Below the pieces are notes generated by a model, which did no database searches, had not been told where the DNA came from, and was given only the letters and a program-made list of their open reading frames with translations. This document shows, in pieces, positions 6,090-43,981 of a stretch of 64,000 nucleotides of DNA. The translations under genes were made by a program, and so were the position numbers. The first letter of the stretch is position 1. Each line of letters opens with the position of its first letter. Location: NCBI RefSeq assembly GCF_058153355.1, contig NZ_CM177019.1. The stretch is one strand, 5' to 3'.

Positions 6090-7379
6090 TTAGCTGAACA
6101 GAGAGTAGAAGATTGCGGAGATTGCAATCAGACCCATCACGACAACGAATACGTTGCTGATGTGACCGCTGTACTTACGCATTGCCGGTACTTTCTGGAT
6201 TGCGTACATCGGCATCAGGAACAGGATCATCGCGATGATTGGGCCGCCCAGGGTTTCAATCATACCCAGGATGCTCGGGTTCAGGGTGGCAACAATCCAG
6301 GTCGTTACCAGCATGAACAGCGCAGTGATACGGTTCAGCTTGTTGATTTCGATAGACTTACCTTTACCACGCAGAGATTTAATCACCATACCGTTGAAGC
6401 CTTCACGTGCACCCAGGTAGTGGCCGAGGAAGGATTTGGTGATAGCGATAATCGCGATAATCGGAGCCATCCACGCGATGATCGGCGCGTTAAAGTGGTT
6501 AGCCAGGTAAGACAGAATAGAGATGTTCTGCTCTTTAGCCGCAGCCAGGTCTGCCGGAGTCAGGCTCAGTACGCAGCTGAAGACGAAGAACATTACGGTC
6601 AGCACCATCATGATGTGTGCGAATGCCAGGATCTTCGAGCATTTCTGTTCTGCCATATCGCCGTACTCTTCACGCTTCGCAACGGCGAAAGAAGAGATGA
6701 TCGGAGAGTGGTTGAACGAGAACACCATGACCGGAATCGCCAGCCACAGGGTCATCCACAGACCGTTGCCGGTTGCCGATGCAGTGTCCAGAGACAGCGT
6801 TTCCAGTGCTGCGCCGTTCCACTGAGGGATCAGGTACAGAGCCAGCAGCATCAGTACACCAACAAACGGGAATACCAGAATACTCATCGCCTTCACGATC
6901 ATCTGCTCACCGAAGCGAACAATGGTCATCATACCCACAATCAGGATCAGAGACAGAATCGCACGCGGCGGCGGCGTCATACCCAGCTGGTGAGACATGA
7001 AGCTTTCAACCGTGTTGGTGATTGCCACACTGTAAACCAGCAGGATCGGGTAGATAGCAAAGAAGTAGAGCAGGGTAATCAGTTTACCTGCACCAATACC
7101 AAAGTGTTCTTCTACAACCTCGGTGATGTCTTCGCCTGGGTTTTTACCAGACAGTACGAAGCGAGTCAGGCCGCGGTGAGCAAAAAACGTCATCGGGAAC
7201 GCAAGGATAGCCATGATGATCAGCGGGATCATACCGCCAACACCGGCGTTGATTGGCAGGAACAGCACGCCCGCGCCGATTGCCGTGCCGTAAAGGCCCA
7301 GCATCCACATGGTGTCTGTCTTGCGCCATGCACTACGTGAGTCTTTCGACACAATCGTGCTGGTTTGAGTCGTTTCCAT
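6090..7379 (-). CDS. sdaC: serine:H+ symporter
   Basis: ORF 6090-7382 (MMETTQT...); 429-aa polytopic transporter recognised as SdaC, upstream of sdaB on the same strand. Confidence 0.93.
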
Positions 7380-9411: not shown

Positions 9412-10260
9412 TTATTGCCGAACCAGTCTTGTGGTCGATGGGACAAAATCGCTATTACTGCGCCACGGGTTAATGTCCAGACCGCCACGACGGGTATAAC
9501 GTGCGTAAACGCTCAATTTCTCTGGCTGGCAGAAGCGTAACAGGTCATTAAAGATGCGTTCCACGCACTGTTCATGGAACTCGTTGTGATGACGGAAAGA
9601 GACCAGGTAACGCAGCAGTTTTTCCCTGTCAATTTGGCGTCCGCGATACTGAATTTGGATCGAACCCCAATCTGGTTGATGGGTGATCAGGCAATTTGAT
9701 TTCAGCAGGTGGCTGACAAGCGTCTCTTCTACTACTTTTTCGCCACTGGTGGCATTCTCCAGATAGTCAGTAGTGAATTCATAGTTATCGATAGTGATAT
9801 CCTGGTTATCAATGCAAGTGCCATTGAAATGACCTATCGGTTGGCCTTCCAGTTCATCAAGGCGATATAACGCCACGCTAACATTACCCTGGGCGCAAGT
9901 GCTTAAGTCGCGCTCCAGCGTCTGGCGCACCTCATCCCAGTTATTAAAACGCGTCTGGTTAAAACTGTTGAGATAGAGCTTAAAACTCTTCGACTCAATC
10001 AGATTTGCGCTGGTGTAATCAAGTTCAACATGACCGACGGCGACCTGCGGCAAACCTTTCGCATTCAGCCAGGAAAGTTCATATAGCGTCCAGATATCCG
10101 TACCATGAAATGGCAGGTTATCCGCTTTCAGACCCAGCGGATCGCGATTCAGACTACGCGGAACGCCTTGTAGCAGGCTGGCGTCATAGGTATCCCGGTA
10201 ATCGGTTGATTTTCCAAGAGTCAGGCCCGCAAGTGCCTGATGGTTTGCATAAGAAGACAT
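9412..10260 (-). CDS. queF: NADPH-dependent 7-cyano-7-deazaguanine reductase
   Basis: 282-aa ORF recognised as two-domain QueF (YqcD). Confidence 0.92.
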
Positions 10261-13492: not shown

Positions 13493-14845
13493 ATGAGTTC
13501 TTTAAGTCAGGCTGCGAGCAGTGTGGAAAAACGCACGAATGCTCGTTACTGGATAGTGGTGATGTTGTTTATCGTCACATCCTTCAACTACGGCGACCGC
13601 GCTACGCTCTCTATCGCCGGTTCGGAAATGGCCAAAGATATCGGCCTTGATCCTGTGGGAATGGGCTATGTGTTCTCTGCTTTCTCATGGGCTTATGTTA
13701 TCGGGCAGATCCCTGGTGGCTGGTTGCTGGACCGTTTTGGTTCAAAACGCGTCTACTTCTGGTCGATCTTTATCTGGTCGATGTTTACCTTGCTGCAAGG
13801 CTTCGTCGATATCTTTAGTGGATTCGGCATTATCGTTGCCCTGTTTACGCTGCGCTTCCTGGTCGGGCTTGCTGAAGCGCCATCTTTCCCCGGTAACAGT
13901 CGCATTGTAGCGGCCTGGTTTCCGGCGCAGGAAAGGGGAACTGCAGTGTCTATTTTTAACTCCGCCCAATACTTCGCAACAGTGATCTTCGCGCCGATTA
14001 TGGGCTGGCTGACTCATGAAGTGGGTTGGTCACATGTCTTCTTCTTCATGGGCGGTCTGGGCATTGTCATCAGCTTTATCTGGTTGAAAGTCATCCATGA
14101 GCCAAATCAACATCCGGGCGTAAATCAGAAAGAGCTGGAGTACATCGCCGCGGGTGGTGCGCTGATCAATATGGATCAGCAAAACACCAAAGTTAAAGTA
14201 CCGTTCAGCGTGAAGTGGGGGCAGATCAAACAGCTGCTCGGGTCACGGATGATGATCGGCGTTTATATCGGTCAGTACTGTATCAACGCCCTGACTTACT
14301 TCTTTATTACCTGGTTCCCGGTTTATCTGGTGCAGGCACGCGGGATGTCGATTCTGAAAGCGGGCTTTGTGGCTTCCGTTCCGGCGGTTTGCGGTTTTAT
14401 CGGCGGTGTGCTGGGTGGGATTATTTCCGACTGGCTGATGCGCCGCACGGGATCGCTGAACATTGCGCGTAAAACACCGATCGTAATGGGCATGTTGCTG
14501 TCGATGGTGATGGTGTTCTGCAACTACGTCAACGTTGAGTGGATGATCATCGGCTTTATGGCGCTGGCCTTCTTCGGTAAGGGCATCGGGGCGCTGGGTT
14601 GGGCAGTAATGGCAGATACCGCGCCAAAAGAGATCAGCGGTCTTTCCGGTGGCCTGTTCAATATGTTTGGTAACATTTCCGGTATCGTCACGCCAATCGC
14701 AATTGGTTATATCGTTGGCACGACTGGCTCCTTTAATGGGGCGCTGATTTATGTTGGTGTTCATGCCCTAATCGCGGTACTGAGCTACCTGGTGCTGGTG
14801 GGCGATATCAAGCGTATCGAGCTGAAACCTGTTGCGGGGCAATAA
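13493..14845 (+). CDS. gudP: glucarate/galactarate transporter (MFS)
   Basis: 450-aa MFS ORF; first gene of gudPXD. Confidence 0.92.
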
Positions 14846-34797: not shown

Positions 34798-36282
34798 TTA
34801 CGCATTCGACCAGCTCTGGATCGAATCTTCATTCCCCAGCTCACCATGCATCACTTCATACGATTTTTTCAGGATCACATCAGTGTGTTTGGTTAGGTCT
34901 TTGAAAATGCCTTTATTCATCGCGTCGTAGCGTTTGGCGTTGCTCTCAACAGGCATAAAGATATCTTTCACGCGAACCATTTTGTCGACAGCCGTTGCGT
35001 AATCCGGGTATAGCCCCAGACCTACCGCCGTATTAATCGCTGCCCCCAGGCTTGCACAACCGTTAATGGCGTTACGTCGTGCCGGAAGGTTGAACACGTC
35101 GGCAAAAATTTGCATAAACAGATCGCTGTTCGAACCGCCGCCAGTAATGATCACATGTTTCGCAAAGTGATTCATTTCATGACACATATTGTCGTAATTG
35201 TTCTTCAGCGTCAGCGTCAGCGCCACGCTTTCCAGTATCGAACGATATATCCATGCGTAATCCATGCTGGAATCAAAGCCGATCATAATCCCGCGTTTGT
35301 ACGGTTCCCACGGATTGGTCAGCCAGTCCAGCACCGTCATCAGACCATTACAGCCAGGCGGCACACAACAAGCTTTTTTGTTGAGCAAATCTTCCGGTGA
35401 AAGATCCTGCGCCCTGGCATCCTGAATTAACGATTCGCCTAGCATGTCGCGCAGCCAACTCACCGTCCACATGCCTTTGCGAATACCGTAACCTTCATAC
35501 AGCAAGGTTTGCGGAATAGAAGACATAATCGGCCAGTACGCTACCGGATCTTTCGGCAGTACTTTGCCGTTCATCATCAACGCGATGTAAGTGCCAAGAG
35601 AAATTACCGCAGTTTCATCATCCAGTAACCCGGCTCCCAGTGCTTCTACCGGTTTATCACTGGTGGTACAAACAACCGGCAGCCCAGCCGGGAAATGTGT
35701 CGCCAGCGCGGCTTGTGGTGTGATATGCCCAAGAACAGTGCCCGGCATTTGCACATCAAAAAGCATCTGTTGGGGAATATTAAACTTCTCCATTACCGCG
35801 GTATCTTCGCTCCATGCCCAGGTCTTATAATCCACCGGCCACTGACCAAAATAGTTGGCGATATTGTCTTTAAACTCGCCGGTTAAACGGTGTGTCAGAT
35901 AACCTGAAAAAGAGGTGACATATGCCACATCAGGATTGGTGTGCTCGTAGGGACGTGTTACGCGTGCATCCTGCCAGCTAATCAACGGCGCAGCTGGCGT
36001 GCCATCGGCTTTCAATAACGCACGGCAGCAACGGATAGATCCCAGACCAATGCCGACAATATCTTCTTTATTCCCGGCAAACTGGCTCATCAAATCGTGA
36101 CCAGCAAAACATAATGATGCCCATAAATCATCGTCAGGATGTTCTGCGGTATCGGCATCTGGAGTGTGCATCGGTTGTAATAAGCCTTTGCCTTCGCAAA
36201 CCACGTTACCTTCCAGATCGTACATCACCACTTTTGTGCTCTGACTTCCGCCATCAATCCCTATGATGTATTTTTTCGACAT
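34798..36282 (-). CDS. ygcE: FGGY-family carbohydrate kinase
   Basis: 494-aa ORF, FGGY kinase N-terminus (IGIDGGSQSTKVVMYD). Confidence 0.88.
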   Translation of the reverse strand: MSKKYIIGIDGGSQSTKVVMYDLEGNVVCEGKGLLQPMHTPDADTAEHPDDDLWASLCFAGHDLMSQFAGNKEDIVGIGLGSIRCCRALLKADGTPAAPLISWQDARVTRPYEHTNPDVAYVTSFSGYLTHRLTGEFKDNIANYFGQWPVDYKTWAWSEDTAVMEKFNIPQQMLFDVQMPGTVLGHITPQAALATHFPAGLPVVCTTSDKPVEALGAGLLDDETAVISLGTYIALMMNGKVLPKDPVAYWPIMSSIPQTLLYEGYGIRKGMWTVSWLRDMLGESLIQDARAQDLSPEDLLNKKACCVPPGCNGLMTVLDWLTNPWEPYKRGIMIGFDSSMDYAWIYRSILESVALTLTLKNNYDNMCHEMNHFAKHVIITGGGSNSDLFMQIFADVFNLPARRNAINGCASLGAAINTAVGLGLYPDYATAVDKMVRVKDIFMPVESNAKRYDAMNKGIFKDLTKHTDVILKKSYEVMHGELGNEDSIQSWSNA

Positions 36283-36308: not shown

Positions 36309-37586
36309 TTACTTGCTGCTAGCCATTGCGGGGGCGCTATCAGCAGTACGAATTTTTTGGAACAGCAAAAAGGTAAAGACGATCACCATGGCAAGCGCCG
36401 CCATGCCCATCAGCCACATATTGCGGTAGGCTTCTGCCGCGGGCAGGGTGTCTTGCCAGTGGCCGATAATTGGGTAAACGAAGACATCCGGCAGAAATCC
36501 AATCACCGAACAAATACCTACCGTGGTGCCCATAATGTAAGACGGTGTTCTCGCTTCGCCGGGGCAGGCCCAGTACAGCCCGCGGGAGGCGTAGCAGGTG
36601 AATCCCAGTAGTAAAATCAGGCCAATCCCCATCGCGACCGATTGCGGGTTAGAGTTCGTGATGAGCAGGGCAGTTAACGCCAGCAGGCCGAGTACGGAAA
36701 GGATTTGGATCACGCGGGTAGGGGATTTCACTTTGCTGTAGGTGGTGATAATGCCACCAAGTGGGCCGCACAGTGCGCGGAAGATTTTGTTGATCACAAT
36801 CCCCATGTAGCTCGCCGCCACCAGCGACATGCCGTACATTTCGGTCAGATAGTTGGTGGAGTAACTCAGAATGGCGTAGATGGTGAAGACGCCAAAAATC
36901 ACCATGCTGCAGTACCATGTGGTGCTGATACGCAAAACGGCAAGGATGTCGCTAAGCTGGAATGACTGTTTTTCTTCGGTGTTGGTATTGCGCAGGTTGT
37001 TGTTATCGCTAACAAAAAACCAGCACAGAATCCCCAACAAGATGTAAACCACACTATAGATGATAATGACCGTTTTCAGGCTGGCGCTGTCATCCGGTGC
37101 AAAGCGAGAAAAGACCCACATGGTAAACACCGCCAGCGACATTACACCGACGCCGCGCAGCCCTTCCATCCAGCCCATAATTTTCCCCTGCTCGCTATGA
37201 TCGCCAAGCAACGATGCGGCTTTAATCGACACCGACCACAGCATTAAAATCGTCGTTATCGCAAAGGCGACCTGAATACAGAGCATTACCCACAGCGGTG
37301 GATACGTTGCCATTAACAGACCCAGCAATCCGGTAATGATCATCGCGGAAGTAATCATTTTGCGGTGTGAAAATTTATCGGCAATAACGCTGCTGGGGGC
37401 ATAAAGAATAATAGCCGCAATACCAAAGGTACTCATTATTAAACCTATCTCGGTATTGCTGAATCCCATAAATTTCGCCATGGGAATTTGATAAATATAA
37501 CGTAAATAAGCCAGGTCGAAACTAACGCCGCCGCTAAAACTAATTATCGCGAGGGTTATCCAACGGCGATATGAGTTGTGTTGCAT
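36309..37586 (-). CDS. yqcE: MFS transporter
   Basis: 425-aa polytopic ORF upstream of ygcE on the same strand. Confidence 0.88.
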   Translation of the reverse strand: MQHNSYRRWITLAIISFSGGVSFDLAYLRYIYQIPMAKFMGFSNTEIGLIMSTFGIAAIILYAPSSVIADKFSHRKMITSAMIITGLLGLLMATYPPLWVMLCIQVAFAITTILMLWSVSIKAASLLGDHSEQGKIMGWMEGLRGVGVMSLAVFTMWVFSRFAPDDSASLKTVIIIYSVVYILLGILCWFFVSDNNNLRNTNTEEKQSFQLSDILAVLRISTTWYCSMVIFGVFTIYAILSYSTNYLTEMYGMSLVAASYMGIVINKIFRALCGPLGGIITTYSKVKSPTRVIQILSVLGLLALTALLITNSNPQSVAMGIGLILLLGFTCYASRGLYWACPGEARTPSYIMGTTVGICSVIGFLPDVFVYPIIGHWQDTLPAAEAYRNMWLMGMAALAMVIVFTFLLFQKIRTADSAPAMASSK

Positions 37587-37610
37587 ATCGTATTCCCATT
37601 TGTAATAGAC

Positions 37611-37658
37611 AAAAAAAAGAGAAAAGTAAGCCGCCCTTTCAGGTGGATTACTTTTCTC
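37611..37658 (-). terminator. intrinsic-terminator-like hairpin plus U8 in the yqcE 5' leader (candidate attenuator)
   Basis: Minus-sense: GAGAAAAGTAA (18-nt loop) TTACTTTTCTC followed by TTTTTTTT, ending about 25 nt upstream of the yqcE ATG; no upstream same-strand gene for it to terminate. Confidence 0.5.
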
Positions 37659-37764
37659 AGGTCTCTAGTAATTGCAGTAAGAAATAACATGGAAAGCAGT
37701 GGTGTTGTGTGAGAGTAATCACGCTTCTGCTTTTTAAAATTATTTGACAATTCGAATATCACAC

Positions 37765-37780
37765 TGTGATTACGATCACA
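37765..37780. promoter_or_regulatory. CRP-type site TGTGA-N6-TCACA in the yqcE/ygcW divergent promoter region
   Basis: Perfect match to both CRP half-sites with 6-bp spacer (TGTGATTACGATCACA), overlapping a second palindrome ATCACACTGTGAT. Confidence 0.55.
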
Positions 37781-37833
37781 TTAGCGCTTATGCCCTTATG
37801 CTAAAAATTATCTCCAGTTACCAGAGATAATGA

Positions 37834-37880
37834 GAAAGGTAACTTCCCTCTCGCGGGGGAAGTTACCTTTCTTTTTTTTT
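37834..37880 (+). terminator. intrinsic-terminator-like hairpin plus T9 in the ygcW 5' leader (candidate attenuator)
   Basis: 15-bp perfect stem GAAAGGTAACTTCCC / GGGAAGTTACCTTTC with 8-nt loop, followed by TTTTTTTTT, 24 nt upstream of the ygcW ATG. Confidence 0.55.
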
Positions 37881-37904
37881 GCCTTACGGAAATTGGAGCT
37901 AACT

Positions 37905-38690
37905 ATGTCAATCGAATCTCTCAATGCGTTCTCAATGGATTTTTTCTCCCTGAAAGGTAAAACCGCAATTGTTACCGGCGGGAATAGCGGTTTAGGCCAG
38001 GCATTTGCCATGGCACTCGCAAAAGCAGGCGCAAATATCTTTATTCCAAGTTTCGTTAAAGATAATGGCGAAACAAAGGAAATGATTGAAAAACAGGGTG
38101 TTGAGGTGGACTTCATGCAGGTGGATATCACCGCAGAAGGCGCGCCGCAGAAGATAATTACCGCCTGTTGTGAACGTTTCGGCACCGTCGATATTCTGGT
38201 TAACAATGCCGGTATATGTAAGCTGAATAAGGTGCTGGATTTCGGTCGTGCCGACTGGGACCCGATGATTGACGTGAACCTGACCGCCGCATTCGAGTTA
38301 AGCTATGAAGCGGCAAAAATTATGATCCCGCAGAAAAGCGGTAAAATCATTAATATCTGTTCATTATTCTCTTACTTAGGTGGACAATGGTCACCTGCAT
38401 ATTCTGCCACTAAACATGCTCTTGCCGGATTCACCAAAGCTTATTGTGATGAACTAGGTCAATATAATATTCAGGTAAATGGTATTGCCCCTGGCTATTA
38501 TGCAACAGATATCACCCTGGCGACACGCAGTAATCCAGAAACCAATCAGCGCGTTCTTGATCATATTCCGGCAAACCGTTGGGGCGATACTCAGGATTTA
38601 ATGGGCGCAGCCGTATTCCTCGCAAGTCCGGCTTCAAATTATGTTAACGGGCATTTATTAGTGGTCGATGGCGGTTATTTAGTGCGCTAA
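37905..38690 (+). CDS. ygcW: short-chain dehydrogenase/reductase (KduD-like)
   Basis: ORF 37830-38690 trimmed to MSIESLNAF...; SDR motifs TGGNSGLG and YSATK; the track N-terminal extension would run through the leader hairpin. Confidence 0.88.
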   Translation: MSIESLNAFSMDFFSLKGKTAIVTGGNSGLGQAFAMALAKAGANIFIPSFVKDNGETKEMIEKQGVEVDFMQVDITAEGAPQKIITACCERFGTVDILVNNAGICKLNKVLDFGRADWDPMIDVNLTAAFELSYEAAKIMIPQKSGKIINICSLFSYLGGQWSPAYSATKHALAGFTKAYCDELGQYNIQVNGIAPGYYATDITLATRSNPETNQRVLDHIPANRWGDTQDLMGAAVFLASPASNYVNGHLLVVDGGYLVR

Positions 38691-43405: not shown

Positions 43406-43981
43406 TCAAAGCAATTTTTTCGCTAACGTCCAGACCCCGGTATTCGTGGTAGAAAGCGCCACTACACCGGCGTTAATCGCATTACGCGCATCTTCTTCAT
43501 CGCACACCAGCCCGCCAGCAATCAGCGGCTGGTGGATTTTCTCCGTTACCCAGCCCAGTACTTTAGGCATACAGCCTGGCAGAATTTCAATACAATCCGG
43601 GTTCGATTGCGCAACCTGTTTATCAATGTTGTGAAATGAAATCGAATCAACAATAAACAAGCGATGAATACAGAAAAAGCCTTCCGCTCTCGCCGCTTTT
43701 AGCATTGACGCTTTGGTACTGATAATGCCGTCCGCCTCGGTCACCAGTTTCAGAAACTGAATTACTACTTCTTTATTTGACGCGCCTTCCAGCAAATCGA
43801 CATGAATAAAAGCATATTTTCCGGCGTTCTTAATCTTTTTGACGATATGACTGATGGTGCAAATATTGCCGTATAACACGGAAATAAACTGGCATTCAGA
43901 ATCGATTGCCAACTGCAGGCTGGCATTATCTTTAACGGCAGCAATCACCGGATTCTGGCGGAGCAGGTGTAAGAGGGGCAT
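43406..43981 (-). CDS. ygcP: GlpP-like putative transcription antiterminator
   Basis: 191-aa ORF recognised as YgcP (glycerol-3-phosphate-responsive antiterminator family). Confidence 0.85.
   Translation of the reverse strand: MPLLHLLRQNPVIAAVKDNASLQLAIDSECQFISVLYGNICTISHIVKKIKNAGKYAFIHVDLLEGASNKEVVIQFLKLVTEADGIISTKASMLKAARAEGFFCIHRLFIVDSISFHNIDKQVAQSNPDCIEILPGCMPKVLGWVTEKIHQPLIAGGLVCDEEDARNAINAGVVALSTTNTGVWTLAKKLL

Follow-up and report, generated by a model that had tools for sequence, protein, structure and literature searches.

Twin leaders of the divergent ygcW and yqcE operons of Escherichia coli: a conserved, probable attenuator element and its candidate partner, the GlpP-like protein YgcP

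Why would a gene be preceded, a few nucleotides (nt) before its own start codon, by what looks like a transcription terminator? We asked this question for the E. coli-type ygc locus found in a 64,000-nt stretch of contig NZ_CM177019.1 (NCBI RefSeq assembly GCF_058153355.1), hereafter the window, where the locus lies in reversed orientation relative to K-12. Two divergent operons, ygcW-U-S-R-Q on the plus strand and yqcE-ygcE on the minus strand, start there from a common intergenic region. An initial annotation, made from the letters of the window, had described a hairpin followed by a T-run in each leader and had proposed attenuation by YgcP, a GlpP-like protein encoded in the same cluster. 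The analysis presented here indicates that both leaders are two copies of one conserved element of about 65 nt. The earlier attenuation interpretation is supported, and we consider it probable that the twin leaders are best explained as YgcP-dependent antitermination switches of the GlpP type.

One conserved element in both leaders

In the ygcW leader, on the plus strand, a perfect 15-bp stem is made of GAAAGGTAACTTCCC (37834-37848) and GGGAAGTTACCTTTC (37857-37871), and RNAfold lengthens it to 19 pairs (37832-37873). It is followed by nine T (37872-37880; the U9 tract of the RNA, a U-run kept in the aligned copies shown), then by 24 nt containing a GGAG Shine-Dalgarno sequence, and then by the ATG of ygcW at 37905. 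In the yqcE leader, on the minus strand, GAGAAAAGUAA (37658-37648) and UUACUUUUCUC (37629-37619) form an 11-bp lower stem, and the 18 nt between the arms are partly self-paired as an imperfect upper stem, the whole hairpin covering 37619-37658. A U8 tract (37618-37611) comes next, and again 24 nt separate it from the ATG, at 37586. Both hairpins are thus present with the stems, loop, T-runs and distances that had been claimed for them. When the leaders were folded, the 101-nt ygcW leader reached -41.8 kcal/mol (z = -6.85) and the yqcE leader a z of -3.69, and none of 200 shuffled sequences equalled either one. As ygcW and yqcE are divergent, neither hairpin can terminate an upstream gene of the same strand, which had also been noted. 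Since just 24 nt, including the Shine-Dalgarno sequence, lie between each U-tract and the ATG, expression of the genes needs read-through.

The comparison was based on 80 loci around YgcP homologues, collected from one-genome-per-species contigs. After a simple pattern search, a covariance model, R1, was built from 64 distinct copies. The covariance model also recovered diverged copies from Bacillota and, in Citrobacter and Klebsiella, ygcW-type copies with the variant GGTGAC, all of which strict regular expressions had overlooked. In the window, R1 gave just two strong matches, one in each leader: 37816-37880 on the plus strand (71.2 bits, E 3e-12) and 37611-37673 on the minus strand (74.5 bits, E 6e-13). 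Each contains an antiterminator helix, P1, the terminator and the U-tract. The two stems had been called sequence-related; as full-length matches of a single covariance model, they show a closer kinship than claimed. Rfam 15 gave no relevant match for the window leaders even at E <= 10, and a Halobacillus copy of the element and one glp-type leader were likewise without relevant match at this threshold. A 901-nt stretch around the intergenic region is matched at 95-99% identity in 5,063 E. coli genomes and, among the E. coli matches listed, the RefSeq annotation under the element is 'none'.

Altogether, 46 loci encoding a YgcP homologue contain strong R1 matches, 92 in number and scoring 46-81 bits, and these loci belong to three phyla. 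In Enterobacterales, the element was found in Escherichia, Citrobacter, Klebsiella, Raoultella, Yokenella, Pluralibacter, Cedecea, Serratia, Rahnella, Ewingella, Pantoea/Erwinia, Budvicia and Limnobaculum. It was also present in Vibrio hannami, in Bacillota (Halobacillus, Thalassobacillus, Salibacterium, Salsuginibacillus, Geosporobacter, Sporomusa, Dethiosulfatibacter and a Tissierellia metagenome-assembled genome, MAG) and, for the third phylum, in one Anaerolineaceae MAG. It stands before homologues of ygcW, yqcE, ygcU, ygcE or other putative transporter genes, and the distance to the first long downstream open reading frame (ORF), co-oriented with the element, is 0-150 nt (68 copies).

The consensus begins 6-9 nt after a -10 box and reads A-GUUAC-U(N0-3)-AGAG-N3-5-GAGAAAAG-UAAC, continues with a variable upper stem and ends with ..G-CUUUUCUC-U7-9. 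All 64 seed sequences share, without exception, the GAG of AGAG and the first GAG of GAGAAA, and the sequence of the lower stem is conserved across phyla far above what pairing requires. The stems are kept, and covarying, in orthologous loci, a conservation whose lack the initial annotation had named as refuting its proposal.

Several loci depart from the common gene arrangement. In Geosporobacter ferrireducens (L041), tandem copies at 7161-7220 and 9685-9744 lie within one gene string, one before ygcW-ygcE homologues and the other before ygcU-ygcR-ygcQ, and the gene pair for the electron-transfer flavoprotein (ETF) is duplicated. After the copies L049 1777-1836, L052 9789-9850, L053 9737-9802 and L044 2763-2831, either the downstream ORFs were unmatched by the ygc proteins of the window or the gene order was different; the ORF that follows the element in L049 (378 aa) may encode a transporter, and those of L052 and L053 have 549 and 219 aa. 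The genes ygcP-ygcW-ygcU-ygcE of L053 are apparently one unit, and the element is absent between them.

Two mutually exclusive helices

The element opens with 6-7 nt that can pair with (A/G)GUAAC(U), a segment within the 5' arm of the terminator. The resulting helix, P1, has 5-7 bp around a loop of 14-15 nt. In the ygcW leader, AGUUACC (37816-37822, plus strand) pairs with GGUAACU (37838-37844), which is part of the terminator 5' arm, and the two strands enclose the loop AGAGAUAAUGAGAAA (37823-37837), the proposed protein-contact region. In the yqcE leader, AUUACU (37672-37667, minus strand) pairs with AGUAAU (37652-37647). When only the nascent RNA was folded, P1 was the minimum free energy (MFE) structure in 90 of the 92 copies, while at full length the MFE structure was the terminator. 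The nascent P1 is weak, with -6.4 kcal/mol in the ygcW leader and -1.4 kcal/mol in the yqcE leader. At full length the terminator is far more stable: it reaches -31.2 kcal/mol for ygcW and -20.7 kcal/mol for yqcE, and enforcing P1 leaves -15.6 and -6.5 kcal/mol, respectively. In the P1 state, the two invariant GAGs, that of AGAG and the first one of GAGAAA, are unpaired in the loop, and AGAG is unpaired in both folds.

Covariation of the stem in homologous loci had been proposed as a check, and both the terminator stem and P1 were found to covary. For the terminator, the statistics were computed on 80 distinct sequences, in which the 11 pairs of the lower stem are 96.5% paired. Two-sided changes were seen at 6 of these 11 pairs (27 cells, each counting sequences), with compensations such as GAGAAAAG/CUUUUCUC to GAGAUAAG/CUUAUCU, GAGGAAAG/CUUUCCUC or GAAAGG/CCUUUC. 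Four measures of the lower stem beat shuffles, and for three of them none of 500 shuffles reached the observed value; when the partner columns were slid by 1-3 positions, pairing fell to 54-64%. The upper stem exists in 67 different sequences, and every copy still folds into a hairpin, with no fewer than 14 pairs and a median of 17, at energies from -14.5 to -32.3 kcal/mol.

For P1, pair 2-33 is GC in 48 sequences and AU in 22, the A-U form occurring in the yqcE leaders of Enterobacteriaceae and, separately, in Sporomusa. Pair 9-28 is UA in 50 sequences and CG in 17. None of 500 shuffles gave a higher P1 covariation score, and 19 distinct combinations of P1 strands were counted, each with at least 5 contiguous pairs. 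The pair counts for P1 are conservative, because ten copies with a 3-nt insertion after UUACU were mis-registered by both MAFFT and the model alignment and had to be re-anchored by script. The G-C to A-U change that distinguishes the yqcE P1 from ygcW-type copies is compensated on both strands. Column 28 has two alternative partners: it pairs with column 9 when P1 forms and with column 66 when the terminator forms. In one locus all three strands have changed (AGUUGCC / GGCGACU / GUCGCC); in another locus an A-U pair is flipped to U-A. Since columns 9, 28 and 66 change together, P1 and the terminator are real alternatives, and their arrangement is the classic antiterminator layout. The GAGs, invariant and unpaired, together with a lower stem conserved beyond need, suggest from sequence comparison that the loop is recognised by a binding partner.

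Palindromic repeats just past a transcription start could also be a DNA operator. P1 and the terminator are indeed palindromic as DNA and lie at about +2 to +60, a common place for operators at CRP-dependent promoters, so that the (A/G)TTAC...GTAA(C/T) repeats could bind a repressor and the hairpins would be a by-product. We regard this as highly improbable. Copies of the same genome differ symmetrically (GTTACC/GGTAAC versus ATTACT/AGTAAT), which keeps the pairing and alters both half-sites; the upper stem, with its 67 distinct upper parts, varies freely yet stays paired; and the oriented U-run is always on the gene side. Moreover, a conserved DNA-binding regulator was not seen in the cluster, and terminated RNAs are observed, as described below.

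Promoters and short leader transcripts

We looked at the position of the element relative to promoter signals. In Bacillota, a -10 box resembling TATAAT, itself preceded by TTGACA, lies 6-8 nt ahead of the element; in Enterobacterales, a conserved TGnTAnnnn lies 7-9 nt ahead of it. This spacing places the element at the extreme 5' end of the RNA. In the window, extended -10 boxes are predicted at 37799-37807 for ygcW (TGcTAAAAA, plus strand) and at 37681-37689 for yqcE (TGtTATTTC, minus strand). At the latter, ATGYTATTT is conserved in Enterobacterales and K-12, with TATTTA, has 3 differences.

The initial annotation had pointed out a CRP-type palindrome between the two hairpins. The site, TGTGATTACGATCACA, is present with perfect half-sites at 37765-37780; its centre, 37772.5, is at about -41.5 relative to the ygcW start predicted at ~37814. 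It is not a single site shared by both promoters: a second, CRP-like site had been missed at 37708-37723 (centre 37715.5; TGTGAGAGTAATCACG on the plus strand), which agrees at 9 of 10 half-site positions and lies about -41.5 from the yqcE start (~37673/4). A CRP-like site of its own, matching at 8-10 of 10 half-site positions and with its centre 42-44 nt ahead of the element, accompanies every gamma-proteobacterial copy, so the window has two CRP sites, one per promoter. This spacing is the class II position, and with the predicted starts both window promoters have this geometry; among gamma-proteobacterial yqcE-type copies, the second site and its spacing are conserved. The first site was predicted in earlier published work, is bound in vivo in enterotoxigenic E. 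coli (chromatin immunoprecipitation sequencing, ChIP-seq, of CRP) and is bound in vitro with a dissociation constant of about 1.7 nM (Footprint-seq). The published ChIP and footprint tables give just this 37765-37780 site and not 37708-37723. Transcription from both promoters may depend on CRP. In genomic SELEX (systematic evolution of ligands by exponential enrichment), the ygcW/yqcE spacer is a target of the RpoD holoenzyme and is flagged as a target of H-NS, and silencing by H-NS may be an extra layer of control.

The intergenic region (318 nt; window 37587-37904) has 7 differences from K-12. Three of the seven cluster at 37675-37681, between the yqcE -10 box and the leader start, where the window reads TATTTCTTACTGC and K-12 (L001) reads TATTTATTATTTC; they may alter promoter strength between lineages.

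Published transcript data from K-12 fit these predictions. Romero et al. (2014) reported two short RNAs: ecr2774, of 73 nt, and ecr2775, of 63 nt, for which a northern blot was positive. Using an offset of +1978 for U00096.2 coordinates, verified on CsrB and GcvB, we mapped ecr2774 to window 37812->37885 on the plus strand and ecr2775 to 37673->37610 on the minus strand. Their ends fit the element within 0-5 nt, ecr2774 coinciding with the ygcW copy and ecr2775 lying within 1 nt of the yqcE copy, and both RNAs span the predicted starts to the U-tracts. The hairpins therefore lie inside the 5' untranslated regions (UTRs), as had been claimed; starts downstream of them had been named as refuting, and the published transcripts begin upstream and end there. 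In addition, the Term-seq data of Adams et al. (2021), obtained in lysogeny broth (LB) at an optical density of 0.4, contain a 3' end at -38 nt from ygcW (40,640 reads) and another at -36 nt from yqcE (1,557 reads), which correspond to window 37867 (plus) and 37622 (minus). Their Rho scores are 0.50 and 0.61 ('No') and their intrinsic-terminator scores are 15.8 (ygcW) and 11.4 (yqcE). Short terminated leader transcripts, which the initial annotation had suggested looking for, are thus already published as Rho-independent 3' ends in both leaders. The RNAs ecr2774 and ecr2775 and the 3' ends of Adams et al. are prematurely terminated leader RNAs of the element.

The two catalogues came without attenuation model, link to YgcP or comparative analysis, and Romero et al. 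listed both RNAs as candidate small RNAs (sRNAs) of the 'single extended stem-loop' class, perhaps similar to repetitive extragenic palindromic (REP) sequences. A REP or dispersed palindrome was rejected: R1 matches only twice in the 64-kb window, both times in a 5' leader, and an 80-nt blastn query found one place per E. coli genome, although this query misses even the paralogous copy. The sRNA listing and the accumulation of both RNAs in rich medium, together with the RpoD and H-NS targets of the intergenic region, would also fit independent sRNA genes, constitutively leaky terminators or 5' stabilisers, the operons being controlled only at initiation by CRP and H-NS. This appears to us quite unlikely, since the element always immediately precedes catabolic or transport genes and has their orientation, and since the gap in the window is too short for a second promoter. 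Covariation between P1 and the terminator arm would be purposeless in such an RNA, and the lower stem is conserved across phyla beyond the need for pairing.

YgcP as the candidate antiterminator

YgcP had been presented as a GlpP-family protein, and its matches bear this out: it aligns with Pfam G3P_antiterm PF04309 over model positions 1-173 of 173 (E 2e-62) and with PDB 3KTS, the crystallised GlpP of Listeria (E 1e-28). In the window, ygcP is 5.5 kb from the leaders, and in Bacillota it adjoins the element. The element was found in 46 of the 50 loci whose YgcP has at least 53% identity. Three of the four loci without it have a short contig or an incomplete flank, and the fourth (L042) has glp-type neighbours. 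Conversely, 27 GlpP-proper loci (L055-L081, glp-linked) gave no R1 match at E 1e-5, the best score being 25.8 bits. A motif-first scan of metagenomes gave 7 hits, of which 5 are real; YgcP is encoded on four of these five contigs, and the fifth contig is too short. As the element adjoins the gene of a GlpP-like antiterminator in three phyla, it is a probable target of YgcP, and we infer that YgcP binds this RNA.

L042, a Ruminococcaceae MAG, encodes a YgcP homologue with 62% identity and has no ygc-type element; on its minus strand, near 13617, a glp-type leader precedes a GlpD-like gene. Because of this locus, the percentage of identity to YgcP does not cleanly split the two types of regulon. 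The two rejected hits of the metagenome scan (L082 2104-2127 and L083 555-578) are exact matches of GTTACTAGAG-N-GAGAAAAGTAAC that have neither hairpin nor U-run and were put down to chance; their contigs are near-identical, with one ORF of at least 120 aa in 9-10 kb, and look like eukaryotic DNA.

In the window, ygcE (34798-36282, an FGGY kinase) and yqcE (36309-37586) are on the minus strand, ygcW (37905-38690, 261 aa) and ygcU, ygcS, ygcR and ygcQ (up to 43259) on the plus strand, and ygcP (43406-43981), the proposed trans-acting antiterminator, is on the minus strand together with ygcO and ygcN. Two other in-frame starts exist upstream for ygcW, an ATG at 37830 inside the hairpin (286-aa ORF) and a TTG at 37893 (265-aa ORF); the ATG at 37905 is favoured on account of the K-12 annotation and the position of the Shine-Dalgarno sequence. 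The core common to all phyla consists of ygcP, the element and ygcW-ygcE-ygcU, often with ETF genes. Among the conserved genes of the cluster, ygcP alone does not encode an enzyme, and no second conserved regulator was seen, unmatched ORFs being left unclassified.

This organization was compared with that of the GlpP system. In Bacillus subtilis, GlpP with glycerol-3-phosphate disrupts the leader terminators of glpD, glpFK and glpTQ; the glpD 5' UTR alone moves the control by GlpP and glycerol to other promoters, and deletion of glpP abolishes the control. We found that the glpD 5' UTR contains GGUC-(CUGAGAUGAGGAGA)-GACC, with GACC inside the terminator 5' arm. Twelve leaders of Clostridia located beside glpP, glpD-like or glpK-like genes have the same build with other helix sequences, for example AUUGC-AAGAGAUUAGAG-GCAAU or UGCU-GAGAUGAGGAG-AGCG, and the summed helix score of the glp leaders is 57 against 41.7 +/- 5.8 in shuffles, a score reached by 4 of 1000. 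With GUUAC-UAGAGACCUGAGAAAA-GUAAC, the ygc element has the design of a glp leader and a sequence of its own. Both systems have a PF04309 regulator and an intrinsic terminator that follows the promoter directly, within the 5' UTR. In both, a short helix encloses a GAGA-rich loop and has its 3' strand within the terminator 5' arm, and catabolite control, presumed for ygc, is layered on top. In addition, the FGGY kinase YgcE and the flavin adenine dinucleotide (FAD) oxidase YgcU, with ETF, parallel GlpK and GlpD. They differ in that the ygc RNA, AGUUACU-AGAG-N-GAGAAAAGUAAC, is much more conserved, glp leaders scoring at most 26 bits with the model, in that the ygc gene set is uncharacterised, and in that the element occurs in Gram-negative bacteria at promoters with a class-II-positioned CRP-like site. 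As the gene set differs, the ygc effector is presumably not glycerol-3-phosphate.

Other antitermination systems are more distant. In E. coli, the glp regulon is controlled by the repressor GlpR, and BglG is the precedent for protein antitermination. BglG, SacY and LicT, which act on the ribonucleic antiterminator (RAT), are likewise sugar-responsive RNA-binding proteins and stabilise a weak antiterminator hairpin overlapping the leader terminator in its 5' arm; they have a CAT-PRD (co-antiterminator and phosphotransferase regulation domains) fold, unrelated to the PF04309 barrel, and are controlled by phosphorylation through the phosphotransferase system. HutP, at the B. subtilis hut leader, is ligand-activated and, according to PMC2425495, binds NAG-rich single-stranded repeats both upstream of the terminator and within it. 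The ygc loop is also rich in AG and GAG repeats, but HutP belongs to another protein family and uses two separated sites with no closing helix, and no homology is implied.

Could the RNA instead bind a metabolite directly, as a riboswitch, through P1 and the purine-rich loop, YgcP being merely co-inherited, for instance as an enzyme-like triosephosphate isomerase (TIM)-type barrel? The element is compact and strongly conserved, and it has invariant unpaired nucleotides and a terminator as expression platform, features also expected of a small riboswitch. We nevertheless judge this explanation unlikely. The founding member of the YgcP family is an established antiterminator of leader RNA, the glpD leader, which requires GlpP in vivo, has the same layout, and YgcP is found wherever the contig permits the check. 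A riboswitch match is absent from Rfam, and a loop of 14-15 nt with 5-7 closing pairs leaves little room for a ligand pocket.

For the GlpP-type antitermination that we prefer, the following mechanism can be proposed. Each operon would be transcribed from its own promoter with a class-II-positioned CRP site, and its RNA would begin with the conserved element. As the RNA emerges, (A)GUUAC(C/U) or AUUACU would pair with (G/A)GUAAC or AGUAAU into the weak P1 hairpin, and the invariant AGAG...GAGAAA(A/G) would be presented in its loop of 14-15 nt. Most of this loop, together with the P1 3' strand, also belongs to the 5' arm of the strong terminator (-21 to -31 kcal/mol), after which comes U8-9. 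By default the terminator would win and an RNA of about 63-70 nt would be released, the state seen in LB and glucose medium. When loaded with a pathway intermediate, YgcP would bind the P1 hairpin and its purine-rich loop and hold the 5' arm of the terminator, and RNA polymerase would read into the genes. By analogy with GlpP, the effector could be a phosphorylated sugar or polyol; since YgcE and YgcU parallel GlpK and GlpD, a phosphorylated intermediate is the likeliest candidate, and the ligand of YgcP would most likely be the phosphorylated product of YgcE. A further role of the 5'-terminal hairpin may be stabilisation of the mRNA, which has been reported for glpD.

Several points weigh against this mechanism. 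Co-occurrence is partly by construction, because the loci came from a YgcP-first search, and the motif-first test comprises 5 contigs only. A third copy was sought with the model upstream of ygcN-ygcO-ygcP and none was found in the window, so that the operon of ygcP itself in E. coli has no upstream copy of the element. Much of the covariation, whose cells count sequences and not events, is concentrated in a few clades, and for P1 it amounts to about four independent events as judged from the taxa; P1 is short, and part of its conservation could reflect recognition by a protein or ligand and not pairing. Start sites were predicted from promoter geometry and RNA-seq boundaries. Finally, the Term-seq ends do not fall in the U-tract: they precede its end by 13 and 11 nt and are located in the A/U-rich 3' arm of the lower stem, 5 and 9 nt past the G/C-rich upper stem. 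The offset possibly reflects trimming of the 3' end by exonucleases as far as this upper stem; alternatively, transcription may stop once the upper hairpin has formed, without the lower stem (for yqcE, ...GGCGGCUUACUUUU^).

The first CRP site, the short RNAs, the 3' ends and the GlpP mechanism were already published. The recognition of both leaders as one conserved attenuator with a P1/terminator architecture, its distribution across three phyla and its pairing with the YgcP subfamily were found neither in Rfam, nor in the RefSeq annotation of the E. coli matches listed, nor in the literature searched. In the searchable literature, which does not extend to computational attenuator-prediction databases, we found no functional study of the ygc cluster and no paper linking these leaders to YgcP, nor did we find in the literature a description of an RNA target of the PF04309 family beyond B. 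subtilis. We see about equal weight for and against the broader proposal that the ygc leader provides the first RNA recognition site of a PF04309 protein to be defined in sequence, and with it a family-wide rule: a 4-7 bp helix, an (A)GAG...GAG(A) loop and a 3' strand placed in the leader terminator.

These results turn ten E. coli y-genes of uncharacterised function and regulation into a testable system: the 65-nt cis element is defined, YgcP is the candidate trans factor, and terminated versus read-through RNA serves as the read-out with which the inducing substrate can be screened for. Two RNAs catalogued as 'sRNAs' of E. coli are reclassified as attenuation products, and so are two Term-seq 3' ends that had been orphans. 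The terminator/antiterminator pair is compact and portable between constructs, and comparable leader control has already been used for synthetic regulation in B. subtilis. For the GlpP family, the element provides a conserved, covarying RNA motif that can be used for the annotation of regulons in three phyla. If the broader proposal is true, E. coli would have, besides Bgl, an unrecognised effector-responsive system of protein antitermination, which would govern an uncharacterised, phylum-spanning catabolic pathway with a kinase, an FAD oxidase and ETF, and whose inducer could be found with a read-through reporter.

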